Assembly: GCA_010405405.1 (NCBI GenBank)
Contig: MU004230.1
Span: forward strand, 2,142,627 to 2,206,626
Reading direction: 5' to 3'
From: Microthyrium microscopicum
Lineage: Eukaryota
DNA length: 64,000 nt
Every line of letters starts with the position of its first letter. Within the stretch, counting starts at the first letter, position 1. The position numbers were made by a program, and so were the translations under genes. This document shows, piece by piece, positions 33,984 to 42,125 of the stretch. Below the pieces are notes generated by a model. The model was given only the letters and a program-made list of their open reading frames with translations, searched no databases and was not told where the DNA came from.

Positions 33984-35093
33984 TTTGCTTGCTGGAAGTT
34001 TTTTTTTGTTTGTGGGACACGAGTGTGAGATGGAGATTGGAAAGACTTGTGAGAATACAAGTCTTAAGCCGTGTGTGTATTGAGGAAACTTTGTCCTGTA
34101 GAACGGTGTCTGAGGAGGTGTTTGAGTTGGTTTGGCAGACGAGCGCAAAGACCAGAGGATTGGCGGTAAGTTGGCCGAAGGTAGAAGCGGGTGGCTAAGT
34201 GCCCGAGATGCAGAGAGAGAATTTGGTTGTTAAGGGATTTGATCAAGAGTTTGGATGGAGTTGATGTAAAGGATTAGGAGGAGAAGCAGAAGGCGACTTT
34301 TTATGAACCAGACTGGACTTGTCTTCCATTTTCCGCCTGGCAGTCACGATCCGTGCGTGAATCAGCCTGGACTGGGCCTAGCGTTACCGCACTTACCAAT
34401 AAAGTGTCTAGCGCGAGGCAGCAGCATGTCAGGTACGTGCCTGTTATGGCCCAAAGAAGGCAAGCTCAACGCTCGTCGTAGCCTTACTGGGTATTGGGTG
34501 GTGTTTACTGGTATTTATAACATGTTTTATTTACTGGTGGCGGTAACACCAACTGCTTCACTACCTATATAAACTACTTTCTACTCCGCATACATATATT
34601 TTCCCAGCGTGGAGATATCTATTTTGTTCGAGCGCAAGAAGACTTGGAAAGGAGCAGGGCAAACACTCCCTATGTTTTGTACTTGATATTTGCCACATGT
34701 CGTCAAACTCCCAAACTCCTTAAGCAGGTGGCGATCGCTCCCACCAGTCACAACCAATCGAAGCATGCAGTCAAGCAGTCTTGCTAAAATTCTTTTATCG
34801 CTCTTTTCTTCTGGTTATGTCGAGGCGGTAAACACGCCGCATTCTTCTTTCCATCTTCCACTCACCGCCTTCTCTCAACTCTCCAATATCTTGCCCAGCA
34901 ACCAATGTATGCTTGCTGCATTCCCAGCTTGTTAATGACCTCGTGCAACCTCATCCCCGGTGTGCATGACTCTTCGCTGCCAAGAACTGCCCGCGTCAAA
35001 TTATCGTTGTCGGCGGTCGCATTGCGACCATCAAGTTCTCTATCACCACTTGTAGATTAACCAAGGGCGCCCTTTAGGTACTTGGCTCCGGCC

Positions 35094-37330
35094 ATGACGG
35101 CTCAAATAGCTGAGGCCAGAAAAGCTCTGGTTCTCTACGGCTCTGAGACTGGCAACGCACAGGATATTGCAGAAGAGCTAGGGCGGATATGTGAGCGTTT
35201 GCGATTTGCGACATCCGTTTGCGAGCTAGACAGTATCGATATTGTATGTTCCGTGAAATCATGTCTATGCTTGCCGGGTATGAGCCCAGACAACTCTTTG
35301 CGATGAATACACTTGAAAATAACATACTGACCAATAGTAGAGGCACCTGCCACGATATAAAATTGTGCTTTTCGTAGTTTCAACCACTGGTCAAGGTGAG
35401 CTGCCTATAAATTCTCGGAAGTTCTGGAAAGTTATACGCAGCGCCCGACTCCCTCCTGGTTGCTTGAAGACAGTGAGATTCTCTTCCTTTGGACTCGGTG
35501 ACAGTTCCTACCCAAAGTACGCCAAATTGCACGGTATATATGTAATGAGCCGACACTAATTTCAGCGCAAGGTTCAACTGGGCTCATAGGAAACTTTATA
35601 ATCGTCTAGTACAACTGGGTGCTCATGCAATATGTAATCGTGGAGAGTCCGATGAACAATTCCCTGATGGGTAGGTCTTCCTTGCGTACAATGCCGTTGA
35701 AATATGATGTACCAAATTTGTGTAGTACAATGAATCTAATGGTTCTGCTCTAGAATTGATGGTACATTTGTCCCTTGGTCTGTTGAACTACGAAAGCGAC
35801 TGCTCGAAGAATATCCCCTCCCTGATAGCGTGGAACCAATACCCGATTATATTCCAATCGAGCCCAAATGGACGCTTGACTTCGTGGATACAGACGCTGC
35901 TTCTCGTGAAACCAGCGCGTTACTGCCTCGCAATGGCGCCGGGACTGGCATCCAGGATCTTCCAACAACAGACTTGATCACAATACCAAATTCTCTGACT
36001 GCAACTATCGTTGCCAATACTCGGATAACAGCGGCTTCTCACTTTCAAGACACTCGTCATATTATTCTCACGATACCTGGAAAGCATGACTATCCTCCTG
36101 GAGCCACAGCGACCATCTATCCGAAGAACTTTCCTTCTGATGTCTCTGACTTTCTTTCTCTCATGCACTGGAACGATATTGCCGACAACCCCATCCAATT
36201 TGTTGCATCAACACCAGAAGCTGCTAGAGAATCTCGACCACCACTTGCTCCTTCGATTCTCCTTACGCTTCGGTCACTCCTGACCAGCCATCTAGACATC
36301 ATGGCCATTCCCCGTCGCTCCTTCTTCGGCCAACTTCAACAATACACCACCGATGAAATGCACCTAGAGAGACTTCAAGAATTTACCTCTCCAGAACTGA
36401 TAGACGAATTGTATGATTATACCACCCGTCCACGCCGCTCCATCCTTGAAGCAATCTCAGACTTTCCCTCCGTCCGCCTGCCATGGCAGAAAATATGCAG
36501 CGTCATCCCTATGATGCGTGGCAGACAATTCAGCATTGCCAGTGGCGGCCCACTTAAACATCCGTCCAGTCTGCAAACCATGCCAGCATCTCTTCCGATT
36601 CCTTGTGGATCCGCACTGGAGGCCACTGACTCAGAACCGGTCAATACACCTGCAGAGCCGACCGAAACACGCATCGATCTGCTTATAGCCATCGTCCGCT
36701 ACCGAACCATCATCAAGCGTATTCGTAATGGTGTAGCAACACGATATATCGCCACTCTTCAGCCTGGCACACAGATCAGCATCACTTTGCAAGATGGCGG
36801 TCTCGGTATCAAGCGTGATGGAAACCGTCTACCAGTAGTAATGGTCGCACCTGGCACAGGGGTCGCGCCCATGCGGGCACTGGCATGGGAGCGCTATCTA
36901 CATACAAGCAGTGCGATCAATGTGCAGGACTTGTTATTTTTCGGTTGTCGAAATAAGAGTCTGGACGAATACTTTGGCCACGAATGGAGTAATCTAGGCG
37001 TGGAAATGCTAGGGGCATATTCCAGAGACCAGGTAAGTTCGCAGTCACACGCACAGTCATATTATCATTTGCAGCTCATTCACATATTCATAGCGTGAGA
37101 AGGTATATGTGCAAGACATGATCCGTCAGCAGTCAGCGCGAGTATTTTCACTGCTTGCTGAGCGTGGTGGTATCGTGTTTGTGTGTGGTAGCTCTGGGCG
37201 CATGCCGCAGGCTGTCCGACAAGCTTTGACGGATGTGTTTGTGAAAGAGGGAGCGATGGTCATTGAGGATGCGGAGGAGTTTTTGAAGAGGCTGGAGAAG
37301 GAGGGCAGATATCTACAGGAGACGTGGTAA
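35094..37330 (+). CDS. TAH18: NADPH-dependent diflavin oxidoreductase 1 (Tah18/NDOR1)
   Basis: LYGSETGNAQD, STTGQGELP, FGLGDSSYPKFN, RQFSIAS, MVAPGTGVAPMR, FFGCR, VFVCGSSGRMP and C-terminal QETW; about four introns. Confidence 0.92.
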
Positions 37331-37731
37331 ATTCATTGGGAACTGCTTTTGGTAAATCGCAAAGTTTGTTCCTCTGAAGCTTGGTCCGATTCACTGCTGA
37401 CCGTTCAGTTCGTTGTCAGTTAACAATCTACTAGCCAATACATGACCGGATATATCACCTCTCATTGTAACTCTTCCAGTAATCTGATGGCTTATCCTAT
37501 CTCATGGCCAGTAAAATCATCCACTATAACAAACAGGAATCACATCACACATTGTGAAAAAGGTACAAGTCCGATACAATAAAAGGCTGAATATCACAAA
37601 ACTCTGCAAACCTACCGTCCGTCCATATACACCTGGTCGTCAGCTCCAACAGAAGTATTCAATCGAGGCCAACAAATATCACCAACAGTCCTATCCGAGC
37701 ATAGCAATCACTCATAAGTTAAATCCAAGCC

Positions 37732-38720
37732 ATGACAGCCATGGAATACATAAGGAGGCGCAACCCTTTCAGATCAATCACGCCAAACCTACCACAACAC
37801 GAAGACGAGTACAGTCGCCGGCGATCCAACAGCTTAAATCTCAACACTTCCAATAAGGCTGGTCCTTATCATAAGCAACCACATTTCAATCCACAATACA
37901 TCAAAATCGAGATCAACCCAAGACGACGTAAGCAGCAACTGAAAGTGAAAGTCCCAACAACTCATACTGACCATATTCGCCAGACATTCCACCTCCCCGA
38001 CAATCAACAATCATGTGGCTCAAGAGATTTTTTTGTGGTATTCACAAGTATATTCTCAAAGCTATATGGCGCAATCCAGCCCGAGTTTGCACCGTCTTGA
38101 TGATCGCCCTCGCGATCGCCAACCTAGTCATGATATTGGTGAAATATCTCAAGATCACAGGCAATACAGCAAATGAACGGCTTGATGATCCATTCTTCTG
38201 GATTTTCATTGGAACAATAACAGGCTTGCAGTGTCTTGCGGGGTGCATTCTGTCTTTAATGTATAATATCAAGCACAAGAAGGCTAGCAAACCAGCTGGT
38301 GGCAAACGTGATGATGCAGTGGAGGAAGCAAGAGATGACCTCAACGGAGGCGGTATAGGGGGGGTTACGAGGGAAGAACCTAGAGATGTGGTCTATGGAG
38401 GTGGCTCAGCTAGACTCGATGGAGCTAACACGGGTGGAATCGCACCACCTGCATACAATGAAGATGGCAAGGATTCATTCGAGTCGGAGGATCCTAGAGA
38501 TTCCAGAGATTCTAGGCATGGAGACGGCACAGGTGAATTCGAGAGGGAGGAAGCTAAAGAGTCTTTCAATGGAGGTGGCACAGGTGCATTCAATGGAGGT
38601 GGCATGGGTGGATTCCAGGGGGAGGAAGTCAGAAGTAGCATGGGCGGATTCCAGAGGGAGGAAGTCAGAGGTGGCAAGGAGTTCTTTGATGAGACGAGAT
38701 ACAGGTCGGAGCTACCTTGA
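37732..38720 (+). CDS. Tandem family copy A: orphan two-TM protein with Gly/Glu-rich tail (core ORF 38013-38720; possible 75-aa leader from exon 37732-37927)
   Basis: The intron at 37928-37983 (GTAAGC...CTGAC...CAG) joins the leader in frame to ATG 38013. Two hydrophobic helices (VLMIALAIANLVMILV; FFWIFIGTITGLQCLAGCILSLMY). Confidence 0.7.
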
Positions 38721-39558
38721 TTGATTGTGGTAGAAACTCGCGGGATACCAAAGTGCGCTTGTCCAAATTGTATTTCTTGGAATTATTGTAATAAGGCCCT
38801 GTGCATGCGCTTGTTATATGAGCAAATTTTGAAAAACAAGTTGCCCGAACCGTCTCCGGTATAACAGTAAACTGGTTAGTATGTTAATTCAGTGATCACG
38901 ATAGCATGTCCATATGGATGGAATGGTTATAGGGCGATGGCCTTCATCCATACCTGTTTTTGAGACTATCTAGCAAAGATGACACAAGAGATGGTTCTAA
39001 GATACATCATACAAGTCATAAATATGGTATACATTTCAACGTATGGAGGCGCCCCATGGGAAAAGGCTTGATCGAGTGACGAGAGGATTTATCTGCACAA
39101 TCAGAATATTCTATGGCTGTATTAGGTAATGAGATAGTAATGGCCCCGTCATGCAATCGTTTGTTGGCTCAACCAACACCCTGCAATCAAAGCCAACAGC
39201 TATCACTTCTACAACCCGTTGGTTACAAGATTCACCCAGACTATAGACTCAAACCGAAGGCCCAAACGATGTTCGTAGATGACTTTATAAAGACGCGTAT
39301 TCCTTTCAGATGCCACACTCCTACACTCCACAACAAGAAGACGAACTTAGTCGACGAAAAAGCAACAGTATCAATCTCAGCAATCCAAATAAGGCCGGAC
39401 CTTATTACACTCCACCACCAGATTCCAAGTCACAAGACATTAACGTCCACATCAAACCCCAAATACGTAAGTACTACCAGGAGATTAGGTCACGAAGAAG
39501 CGTACTGACTGTACTGGTTGACCGGCTAGGCTTACAACCTCATTAGCGGTCAACAATC

Positions 39559-39816
39559 ATGGGCTGCTCCTGTACCGATTTCTCCAAAGCTCATAACACC
39601 CGACCAATTCGAGCCCTGGCCTTTTACCTTTTAGGCCTGAATCTTCTCGCATTCGGTCTTCTTTCCTTCAACCTTGGCAGTGCCTACATTGCTCAAGTCA
39701 AAGCTGGCGCGGCGACAATCTGGGCCAAAGATACTGCAACTGCCGCCGTGGCAATCTTTTGGTCGATAGTCGTTGTCATCGTTCTCTTCTACGTTGAATA
39801 CAAGAAGAAAGTTTGA
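39559..39816 (+). CDS. Tandem family copy B: 85-aa two-TM protein
   Basis: caatcATGG context; preceded by an intron at 39467-39529 and a leader homologous to copy A. Two hydrophobic helices followed by a basic KKKV end. Confidence 0.65.
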   Translation: MGCSCTDFSKAHNTRPIRALAFYLLGLNLLAFGLLSFNLGSAYIAQVKAGAATIWAKDTATAAVAIFWSIVVVIVLFYVEYKKKV

Positions 39817-40764
39817 GCACATGGAGGTCGCCCCGTGAGGTGGAAACGATGTAGGTAGCCTAGCAAATTGGACATTGGCTTCGGGAGATTGGTGTGGCGC
39901 GTGTTTGGTCGATCCTTTGTGGAGTGTGAGAAGACTGAAGCGCGAGTGCTTATGATGGCACCGAATTCGAAGGTGTGAGGAGGGGGAGATATGCTGGCAA
40001 TATCTAGTAGTGATTGTCGTATGAAGCGTTCTCAAATAACATAAAGGTGGGCGGAAAATCATGTTGCTTATTGAAGTCCTAGTCTAGTCCGATCACAGAA
40101 GGACGAGCGAGTAGTTGCAAATGTGTTATTTTCTTCCAAATTGATAATGGTCTTTTGGTGATATTCAAACCCTTGTCTTTTTGAATGCATAGTGAGCATT
40201 TTCTCTATATCCCATGTTATCTATCGCGCCATAGCCCGGATGACTCTTATTCATATGTAAAGAAAATTTGGCGTATACAGTCATTACTCGCTTCATGGAG
40301 AAATAGGAATCCAGTGACGAGATGCGTTCCGACCGCGATATAGATCTCTCGAATCAAAGAACACGATGATAAAACTCCCATCTACACTGTCCGTTGCCTC
40401 AATCAAAAGCGATCAATCGAAGCCAACGGCTAGAGCATCACATCTCAGACTTGTTGGTCTCAAAAGTCACCCAGACTATAGCCTCAAACGATCTTCACGG
40501 TCAATTATATTAGAAGACGCTATCCCATTAGATCCGATACACTAACTCTACATCATCAAGACAAACACAGTCAACAAAGACGCAATAGTATCAATCTGAA
40601 TAAGGCCGGACCTTAATATACACACCGAATTTCCAAGTCACAAGATAGTAACGTTCTCATCAACACACAACAACGTATGTGCTAAACGGAGATTAAATAA
40701 TGGAGATATACATGAATACTTACTGTATTGTCCAGGTATACAATCTCATCAACGATTCAAGATC

Positions 40765-41013
40765 ATGGTTTGCACAGACATGAGAGAAAACAAAGTCGCG
40801 ACCATGTACACCATCATATTGTTGATTTTCTTGGTCAACTTCACTCTTATTGTGATCAGAACACACAAACTGGTCAAACACGGAATTATTCCAGCAGATG
40901 GTCCTGTGCTTTGGATATGTATGTCTATTAGCTGGGTCGCAATACTCTTCCTCAGCTGCGGGATGTCGGTAGTACACCACAAGGAAATGGAACGAGCAGG
41001 GTCCCCAGTTTGA
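40765..41013 (+). CDS. Tandem family copy C: 82-aa two-TM protein
   Basis: gatcATGG context; preceded by an intron at 40675-40735 and a leader homologous to copies A and B. Two hydrophobic helices. Confidence 0.65.
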   Translation: MVCTDMRENKVATMYTIILLIFLVNFTLIVIRTHKLVKHGIIPADGPVLWICMSISWVAILFLSCGMSVVHHKEMERAGSPV

Positions 41014-42125
41014 GAACATTCTGCGAACTTGATCTTGTGGACATGATTTGGATTGAAGAGATGTTGGTATGGCTGCGAAGATGAGTCAGTTTGTGTCTAA
41101 TTTCGAAAACGATGTCTGGTTACATCCTTGTTCATTTCTCGTCATATTCGAGGCTTGCATGACTGTATGAATGCCGGGCGTAGCTTTTGATTCAGATAAA
41201 ATGGGATGAAAAACCTCTCTTGTTATTTACTGACTGATAGCAAGTTCATTGACGTTTTGTGGATAGTAGAAACGTACCCAGGCATTCTCTATTGATACTT
41301 ATCCGTGCTACTATTCTTGATCAGTCGAGTGGTTTTGATGCAGGTTGTAGTCAATTCATACAGTTGTCAGTAAATGAAATCGCCGTTGAAGAAAGTGGTA
41401 TCATGGCACATGGCAATGTCGATCCGCAAGTCTAGACCAAACAAGCGAACCATTTTCTGCATGGAACACCTCACAGAGCTCTAGAAGAAGTTGTTGGACG
41501 AACCAGAAATCAGATTCTGCAAAGGTAGTAAATTTTAGTCAACCAGGTGGGTGTGCTTGCAGCAACACTTTGCTTTTTCTCCCACATTTCGGGCGACGCG
41601 ATGCATGGTACGCCTCCTACCTCTGGTGTGCATTCTGAGCTTCAGGGTCAGACTTTCTGATTTTATTTTTGAGCCTTCCAGCTTGCGTGCTAATTGGCTG
41701 AATAACTAGCGGGGCTAGGCTTTTCAACTATTGCGTGCAGCCGTCACGTGAACTTCTCTCAGCTAGCTGTTTGATTGGCTGAAATTAAGTTTAGAAAATA
41801 AAGTCCAAAAGCTGGCCCCTGAAGCTCAGAATGCACACCAGAGGTACTAAAACCACTCACGCCCCGCTCCATCGACAGAGAATTTTCTTTCTCCTCTTTG
41901 TCTACAACTTTGACTTCTTGTCTATCCAATTTATCCTCCGCGAGCGACTTCAGAGCTTTGCGCGCGCGTTGTTACATAAAGCTCTTCTTCATCGATATCA
42001 AAGTATTCTTTTGCGCCACCAAACACCAACCCCCGCCAAACAGGGCCTAACGATCTTCAAGCAATCCTTGCAACCAATTATCGATCATCTGAGCCTTGTG
42101 CTTGAGCATTTCAGCCTTGCCGACC

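Follow-up and report, generated by a model that had tools for sequence, protein, structure and literature searches.

Organization of the array

The stretch analyzed here, a window of 64,000 nucleotides (nt) from contig MU004230.1 of the fungus Microthyrium microscopicum, carries on its plus strand three loci arranged in tandem, referred to as copies A (37.6-38.7 kb), B (39.2-39.8 kb), and C (40.4-41.0 kb). Each of them begins with a common 5' cassette of approximately 380-410 nt, composed of an upstream box, a peptide-coding exon (the leader), an intron of 56-63 nt with GT..AG ends in all three copies, and a linker that places an ATG exactly 29 nt after the end of the intron. The ATGs, at positions 38013, 39559, and 40765, open reading frames (ORFs) of 235, 85, and 82 amino acids (aa), respectively, and each ORF contains two hydrophobic stretches (Kyte-Doolittle, KD, values of at least 1.5 over 19 residues; range 1.9-2.8). 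Segments rich in Lys and Arg are found ahead of the first helix in all copies and behind the second helix in A and B. A description of these loci made previously from the DNA letters (the original prediction) is correct in its coordinates, intron positions, 29-nt spacing, and ATG positions; its statement that each ATG opens a short two-helix membrane ORF holds for the helices of all three copies, and fails for the length of A, in which a tail of 140 aa follows the hairpin. The positions of all features are collected in Table 1.

The leader is a coding exon

Exons 1 and 2 of copy A correspond to the deposited 310-aa "hypothetical protein BT63DRAFT_420061" (P0004) of Microthyrium microscopicum (Dothideomycetes, Microthyriales). 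Exon 1 has 65 codons and one additional base, and is read through the splice, the 10-codon linker, and the methionine of the hairpin without meeting a stop codon. The leader had been treated as an element apart from the membrane ORF, which is not what copy A reveals, given that its leader is in frame with the ATG and forms the first exon of the 310-aa protein.

The comparison of the A and B leaders over 41 alignable codons reveals changes at 16.0 of 26.0 silent sites versus 20.0 of 97.0 replacement sites (Fisher p 1.4e-4), which corresponds to proportions of 0.21 for replacement sites (pN) and 0.62 for silent sites (pS), with a silent divergence (dS) of about 1.3. When the same nucleotides are read in the other two frames, the pN/pS ratios are 1.89 and 1.19. 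The N-terminal codon block of B and C was left out of the comparison, given that its pS of 0.99 points to codons aligned out of register. The fact that pN is low versus pS in the true frame only indicates, from the pattern of substitutions, that the leader is a sequence that evolved as protein-coding under purifying selection. One serine of the leader is kept across a switch between TCC and AGC codons. The conserved cores of the leader are (E/D/N)(Y/F)I(R/K)xRxP(F/I)R and SRR(R/K)SNS(L/I)NL..NKAGPY, and a site of the RRxS type is found in all three leaders, which from its consensus may be a site for basophilic kinases. The conserved N-terminal RRxS/RxxS site of copy A may serve as a phospho-regulatory handle.

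The tail of copy A is rich in Gly, Glu, Asp, and Arg, with 31 Gly in 140 residues, and is encoded by a region (38321-38690) of degenerate internal repeats, in which six copies of a 36-nt unit are found at spacings of 24 to 114 nt. The search of the ESM Atlas with residues 1-175 of A gave no lead, with best feature scores of 0.78 and 0.77, TM-scores that were all below 0.4, and a model with a predicted local distance difference test (pLDDT) value of 0.48.

Similarity among the three copies

The similarity between the copies is strong in the cassette and ends abruptly at the hairpin. Blastn aligns A with B (37750-38020 versus 39287-39565) at 65% identity over 282 columns (E 4e-26), A with C (37623-38015 versus 40378-40767) at 58% over 405 columns (E 6e-12), and B with C (39163-39567 versus 40393-40773) at 68% over 414 columns (E 2e-43), so the claim that the leaders align clearly is confirmed far past chance. 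In all these pairwise blocks, the ATG of the membrane ORF is followed by only 2 to 8 nt of alignment, and the remainder of the ORFs and the 3' flanks are left unaligned. The z-scores of the nucleotide alignments follow the same order: the leader reaches 8.4-13.8 and the introns 3.2-5.6, while the ORFs have values of 1.0-2.5 and the flanks of 0.2-0.8. Only the z-scores of these alignments are used here, given that with their lenient gap costs shuffled sequences attained identities of 0.70-0.74. In agreement with the claim that the membrane ORFs share little beyond topology, BLASTP between the three pairs of ORFs gave an E of 0.53, no alignment, and an E of 0.007 (A-C), and the identity within the ORFs is at the level of unrelated in-frame coding sequences on all diagonals, third codon positions included.

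Two elements of the cassette are restricted to the array. The 14-nt upstream box has three matches in the 64 kb, only at A, B, and C, with 0.07 expected by chance. In copy B, the RNA contig starts at 39248, which puts the box 51-64 nt upstream of this base. The 18-mer coding for NKAGP is found on the plus strand of the window at the three loci only (0.03 expected by chance), and its sole extra match is the minus-strand reading of the partly palindromic site of copy B itself. The best-kept stretch of the leader, AATAAGGCYGGWCCTTA at 39388-39405 (also 37852-37869 and 40599-40616), is an imperfect palindrome, ATAAGG ... CCTTAT. The differences between A and B in this stretch are central and at silent codon positions, and a putative role at the level of DNA or RNA cannot be separated from constraint on the peptide.

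Traces of similarity are also found beyond the ATG. Apart from the cassette, the only match between copies B and C is one of 12 of 13 nt exactly across their TGA stop codons (39810-39822 and 41007-41019), between ORFs with interiors that cannot be aligned, a match that by our rough estimate is unlikely by chance, and the weak BLASTP match between A and C (E 0.007) joins their second helices at equivalent positions. These two matches speak for a common origin of the hairpin ORFs.

Between B and C, the upstream region is the best-kept segment, with 73 of 93 positions identical, and the intron has 32 of 61. Gene conversion was considered as the source of the 5' similarity and set aside as unnecessary, given that such uneven divergence between intron and upstream region is better accounted for by selection on individual parts than by conversion of a single uniform tract.

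Lesions in copies B and C

Copy B keeps the ATG (39269) that aligns with the start of A, and a deletion of 1 nt near 39327/39328 puts the core of its leader out of frame. This core can be read only from another ATG, at 39310, in a frame that ends at the TAG of the linker (39544-39546). The spliced leader ORF that results, of 57 aa (P0005), and the 85-aa hairpin ORF have separate protein entries, the former under the name hypothetical protein BT63DRAFT_20605. The first AUG of the transcript is that at 39269, with an A at -3, and it opens an out-of-frame ORF that overlaps the ATG of the hairpin.

In copy C, the start codon has become ATC, a TAA is found past NKAGP, nine nt are gone in frame, RR has changed to QQ, and the branch-point-like ACTGAC of the intron has changed to ACTTAC. 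Exon 1 of this copy does not contain any ATG. The old frame of the leader is still readable from end to end (NYIRRRYPIRS...SQQRRNSINLNKAGP, followed by a stop codon), which indicates that the leader of C lost its coding capacity only recently. Given that the lesions of B and C are not shared, the coding of the leader was lost twice, independently.

The state of the leader as a possible upstream ORF also differs from copy to copy: it is in frame in A, separate in B (57 aa), and without an ORF in C. A regulatory upstream ORF would fit copy B only.

The sharp end of the similarity at an internal ATG, and the independent loss of coding in the same exon of two copies, are unusual details for a tandem family of orphan genes. 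If the view favored below is right, the annotation would have to be corrected, with the two deposited mini-proteins of B (57 and 85 aa) joined as parts of a single broken paralogue of the 310-aa gene and with C added as an unannotated third copy.

RNA evidence

The RNA contigs used here come from one public run, which contained 69% of the sampled words and whose RNA nature is a guess of the tool. The contigs omit 12 short segments with GT..AG ends (CT..AC for genes on the minus strand), of which the neighboring diflavin-reductase gene contributes four and the SLC35F gene two, and it is from these intron-like joints that the run can be taken to hold spliced RNA-derived sequence. Such contigs cannot reveal strand, transcript ends, or expression level, and the run may share its project with the annotation. 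Their cover has gaps at bins 38842-39175 and 40178-40511, from which no conclusion is drawn.

The predicted introns of copies A (joint 37927>37984) and B (39466>39530) are confirmed to the exact base by the contigs, while that of copy C is not, with no splice joint among the contigs and one contig that spans 40535-41072 unbroken. This contig is joined onward by CT..AC joints (41072>41124/41128), with a further CT..AC joint at 41310>41362, indicating that the RNA over copy C comes from a spliced transcript of the minus strand. This transcript contains no ORF that we judged convincing, and its only ORFs of more than 100 aa (111-129 aa depending on the splice variant) are antisense to that of C; an antisense ORF of 99 aa over C is absent from the protein collection. 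The contigs have no letter differences in A or B, and this letter-for-letter agreement means that the lesions of B are not errors of the genome assembly alone.

One RNA contig runs unbroken from 34643 to 38765, through the diflavin-reductase gene and a 400-nt spacer into copy A. This may reflect either overlapping untranslated regions (UTRs) or read-through.

Orphan status

The search with HMMER of the 310-aa product against 1,835,955,588 representative proteins gave two matches at E<=0.001, both from the array locus, namely the 310-aa protein itself and the 57-aa leader product of B (E 8e-4, 50% identity). Given that a true paralogue such as the leader of B falls barely under the threshold, slightly more distant orthologues would be missed; moreover, the homologue searches covered annotated proteins, and small genes are often unannotated in other fungal genomes. 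The word-based search of the leader against longer proteins returned five candidates with a single match, which was A itself, and that of the B ORF against proteins of near length returned three candidates and matched only itself. Neither Pfam nor NCBIfam assigned a family to the leader, A, or C (the Pfam hmmscan queries, at E<=10, were the A leader, A exon 2, the B leader, the B ORF, and the C ORF). The claim of a lineage-specific family that belongs to no known one therefore holds as far as these tools reach, with two matches in 1.84e9 proteins, both from its own locus.

In PMC7082219, Microthyrium is named for the order Microthyriales, of which this organism is apparently the lone sequenced member. 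No mention of the locus-tag prefix BT63DRAFT was found in the papers searched, and no title on the array locus was found among those listed for papers that name the species.

A probable old tandem family with one intact gene

We favor, with moderate confidence, the view that the array is a lineage-restricted tandem family comprising one intact gene, copy A, and two copies, B and C, whose first exon was broken recently. The ancestral product would have had a basic, Ser-rich N-terminal region of approximately 65 residues, a linker of 10 residues, and a membrane hairpin of two helices whose ends both lie on the side of the basic flanks, taken as the cytosol, and copy A alone would have added the long disordered tail of Gly-rich and acidic repeats. 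The duplications would be old, and at such a distance a sequence that only has to be hydrophobic and that tolerates insertions and deletions is expected to become unalignable. The promoter box and the splice signals would have been preserved by selection together with the peptide of the leader and the context of the start codon. The interiors of the introns, the 3' flanks, and the sequence of the hairpin would have drifted to near-random, the hydrophobic topology alone being kept in the hairpin. Copy A has stayed intact, is spliced as predicted, and is annotated as the 310-aa protein; copy B is still transcribed and spliced, with exon 1 frameshifted and a TAG between leader and hairpin; and copy C has lost its start, acquired a TAA, and now has a weaker branch site and an antisense RNA over it. 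From its motifs, the product of A may be a small membrane-anchored protein, and B and C are probably young pseudogenes or at most leaderless remnants. As in other tandem orphan genes with pseudogenization, there is no detectable homologue outside one genome and the tandem copies decay differentially, and nothing essential differs.

The divergence of the neutral parts is central to this view. The intron divergence K, with the splice signals counted in, is 0.61 for A-B, 1.04 for A-C, and 0.75 for B-C. Given that silent sites (pS 0.62) and introns are both near saturation, no diversifying selection is needed for the hairpins to be unalignable, and the randomized third codon positions likewise point to age and not to selection on residues. 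The original prediction is thus upheld for a lineage-specific family that matches no known one, and not for its reading as a fast-diverging conflict system. Its expectation of allorecognition, poison-antidote, or effector loci is not supported: the leader is under purifying selection, the neutral divergence is near saturation, B and C have independent lesions, no PY motif is found in the leaders, and the array is located in a region of housekeeping genes. A toxin-antidote reading in particular finds no support.

Several observations weigh against this view. Alignment is poorer for the hairpin ORFs than for the introns (z-scores of 1.0-2.5 versus 3.2-5.6), which leaves room for an acceleration of the hairpins or for a separate history. 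In B and C, the hairpin ORFs have stayed open over 85 and 82 codons despite two leader lesions in each copy; under equal neutral decay, both would be open with a probability of approximately 0.03 (our rough Poisson estimate), which hints at selection on leaderless hairpins. The ATG-free exon 1 of C would suit a working 5'UTR. A score of approximately 24 bits for copy B against each of two ammonium-transporter profiles, described below, is a misfit for a helix pair that drifts freely. The function of A is read from motifs alone, and the RNA basis is one run of guessed nature with its 12 intron-like joints. Lastly, the Gly2, Cys3, and Thr6 of the B ORF fit the consensus for N-myristoylation plus palmitoylation. 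These residues belong to the start of the ORF, MGCSCT (39559-39576); the corresponding starts of A (MWLKRF) and C (MVCTDM) do not have Gly2.

If the array is indeed an old family with one intact gene, it would be a textbook case of a conserved leader plus hypervariable domain that arises from age, constraint on one exon, and drift of the helices, and a caution against taking such patterns as signs of conflict.

Alternative explanations

The best-surviving alternative, which we consider unlikely while giving it real weight, is that B and C work through hairpins made without the leader, with translation beginning at the conserved ATG, and that the promoter, exon 1, and intron form a regulatory 5' module that acts as an N-terminal extension in A, as a 57-codon upstream ORF in B, and as a plain 5'UTR in C. 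The position of the ATG exactly 29 nt past the intron in all three copies, with an A at -3, and the end of the similarity at this ATG are in line with it, as is the strong conservation of the region upstream of B and C (73/93). In copy B, the spliced leader ORF stops 12 nt before the hairpin ATG, and the two ORFs are deposited as separate proteins. The open hairpin ORFs of B and C, the leader of C with no ATG, the acylation-like start of B, and the ammonium-transporter match of B keep this alternative alive. Nonetheless, the leader of A enters the hairpin in frame without a stop, and the leader shows constraint at the protein level. The first AUG of B (39269, A at -3), whose out-of-frame ORF overlaps the hairpin ATG, should lower the translation of the hairpin. 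The frameshift, nonsense codons, and lost start of B and C are those of pseudogenes, and copy C has no splice joint among the contigs. Should leaderless hairpins be made, this would matter more than the history of the family favored above.

The hairpin of copy B was found to resemble a part of the ammonium transporters. Its ORF scores 23.2 bits against the Pfam family Amt/Mep/Rh (PF00909), exactly at the cut-off of 23.2 (E 3.4e-5), with residues 16-72 aligned to profile positions 186-242, two adjacent helices of the family profile. The NCBIfam profile TIGR00836 gives 24 bits over the same stretch (cut-off 343.3; E 1.6e-5), and these matches cover only 52-57 of about 400 profile positions. In the feature search of the ESM Atlas, B scored 0.86 and had 183 features in common with its best match, and the ten best family-bearing matches were all Amt, while the structure search of the same resource returned generic helical hairpins only, none of them Amt. 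Our own Amt profile, for which 33 proteobacterial sequences were used (the E. coli reference and 32 pieces from 30 loci), gives approximately 0 for A and C and 17.7 bits for B, with FN.GSA and ATAA...W aligned. This value was not reached by any of 3000 global shuffles of B (maximum 14.5; 2638 of the 3000 returned a score) or of 3000 block-wise shuffles (maximum 15.7). When the window was scanned with this profile in six frames, the B ORF was the only scorer among 2010 segments, the next best reaching 4.4 bits.

These matches would be explained if the hairpin of B were a fragment of an Amt/Mep gene, captured or exapted and attached to the 5' cassette of the family, and not a diverged version of that of A, in which case the membrane domains of the array would be partly non-homologous. 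We judge this improbable. The agreement of PF00909 and TIGR00836 over one stretch, the features of the ESM Atlas, the score above all shuffles, and the uniqueness of B within the window speak for it. Against it stand the short cover of the profiles and the lack of Amt remnants flanking B. No Amt gene was found among the 33 Pfam-scanned ORFs of the window, in agreement with the six-frame scan, and no full-length multi-helix transporter body accompanies B, which has 85 aa versus approximately 400 and no other segment of the window above 4.4 bits. With phmmer, the B ORF matched no solved structure at E<=10, chains of Amt, Mep, and Rh included, and it matched none of 285 longer candidates that share words with it at the same threshold. 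Hydrophobic helices rich in Gly and Ala inflate profile scores, and the Amt family was picked after the fact. The match of B and C at their stop codons (12/13 nt) and that of A and C in helix 2 (E 0.007) also argue for a common origin of the ORFs. True descent of the hairpin of B from a transporter gene, taken by itself, is a substantial possibility, short of being probable. Ammonium transporters have 11 helices versus two in B, and B cannot be a transporter. If its helix pair does derive from one, it would bear on the birth of small membrane proteins from larger ones.

A system under diversifying selection, either for self/non-self recognition or similar to the wtf toxin-antidote genes, meiotic drivers of fission yeasts, with isoforms of leader plus hairpin opposed to those of hairpin only and with a fast-evolving hairpin, is in our view very improbable. 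In the wtf genes, as described in PMC10721834, an N-terminal cytosolic extension distinguishes the long from the short product, the two share the same membrane part, and the genes evolve fast. The layout of the array is similar to that described there, with tandem copies, a conserved N-terminal extension in A, and a membrane part behind it that has an internal Met (PMC10721834), and in addition the hairpins are less alignable than the introns and the family is lineage-restricted. However, the antidote-specific tail of wtf acts through Leu/Pro-Pro-X-Tyr motifs and the wtf products are multi-pass, according to the same source (PMC10721834), whereas no [LP]PxY motif was found in four leader reading frames of the array (the A leader, both frames of B, and the frame of C), its proteins have two helices only, and there is no Pfam match to any such family. 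Copies B and C would be "toxin-only" genes with hairpins unlike that of A, whereas the wtf antidote shares the membrane part of its toxin (PMC10721834). The randomization of third codon positions, equal to that of the others, points to age instead of selection on residues; the array is the only one known, and it lies in a housekeeping region. The isoforms, which in wtf genes arise by alternative transcription initiation, have no support from the contigs, which cannot show transcript starts. The combined version, in which the array would be a two-isoform toxin/antidote-like or self-recognition module with a phosphorylatable exon-1 tail that tames or redirects a fast-changing hairpin, the bare hairpin made from the conserved internal ATG, B and C as selected leaderless derivatives, and a hairpin recruited from Amt in B, is the most improbable of all.

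Comparison with DUP240

By analogy, the nearest functional counterpart of the array family may be DUP240 of Saccharomyces cerevisiae, whose genes are partly found in tandem arrays. The DUP240 proteins have two transmembrane domains and are encoded in multiple copies, and the member Ktd1 is regulated by phosphorylation, according to bioRxiv 10.64898/2026.08.07.743514. The array proteins are likewise small, fungal, multi-copy, and lineage-specific, with two transmembrane domains. In contrast, the five pieces of the array searched with Pfam hmmscan gave no DUP profile match at E<=10, and the copies of the array are almost unalignable past exon 1, whereas the members of DUP240 are described as highly similar (bioRxiv 10.64898/2026.08.07.743514). 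The layout of exon 1, intron, and exon 2 also differs, and two of the three copies of the array are damaged.

Genomic setting and feature list

The array is located between a diflavin-reductase gene with FAD_binding_1 and NAD_binding_1 domains (TAH18-like) on one side and a gene of the SLC35F family on the other, and these flanking domains agree with the placement between TAH18 and SLC35F made in the original prediction. The neighborhood consists of housekeeping genes, including those for polyubiquitin, a nucleoporin, the complex I 51K subunit, and ATP synthase b. The Pfam scan of the window took the longer 33 of the 103 stop-to-stop ORFs of at least 110 aa, and families were found for 15 of the 33. 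Between 37000 and 42200, no RNA family (Rfam, E<=1) and no tRNA (ARAGORN) was found.

Table 1. Features of the array, in window coordinates
Feature	Position	Strand	Remarks
Upstream box CAATCRARGCCAAC, copy A	37660..37673	+	Candidate promoter element; 3 matches in 64 kb, all at array loci
Upstream box, copies B and C	39184-39197 and 40414-40427	+	Same 14-nt box as CAATCRARGCCAAC
Copy A exon 1	37732..37927	+	65-residue basic, Ser-rich N-terminal region; phase 1 end; residues 1-65 of the 310-aa protein
Copy A intron, 56 nt, GT..AG, branch-point-like ACTGAC	37928..37983	+	Contig joint 37927>37984, 0 differing letters
Copy A exon 2: 10-codon linker, Met 38013, two-helix hairpin, 140-aa repeat tail, stop	37984..38720	+	
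Copy A hairpin helices	~38085-38141 and 38202-38258	+	KD 2.79 and 1.89
Copy B exon 1 coding relic	39269..39466	+	ATG 39269 aligns with A start; frameshifted; in-frame leader ORF from 39310
Copy B intron, 63 nt, GT..AG, with ACTGAC	39467..39529	+	Contig joint 39466>39530
Copy B 29-nt linker, TAG at 39544-39546	39530..39558	+	TAG ends the spliced 57-aa leader ORF
Copy B 85-aa two-helix ORF, start MGCSCT	39559..39816	+	Deposited as own protein; residues 16-72 Amt-like
Copy C leader relic	40491..40674	+	ATC at start position; TAA 40614-40616 after NKAGP; 9-nt in-frame deletion
Copy C predicted intron, 61 nt, GT..AG, ACTTAC for ACTGAC	40675..40735	+	Sequence prediction
Copy C 82-aa two-helix ORF	40765..41013	+	29 nt past predicted intron; KD 2.46 and 2.12; absent from protein collection
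Antisense spliced RNA over copy C	40535..41718	-	Introns 41073-41123 (or 41073-41127) and 41311-41361; CT..AC joints

At 41718 and 41848, the RNA contigs have loose ends of 255 letters that are unlike the window, and differing letters are found at 41764 and 41767. These loose ends could represent a junction to sequence located elsewhere or an assembly chimera.

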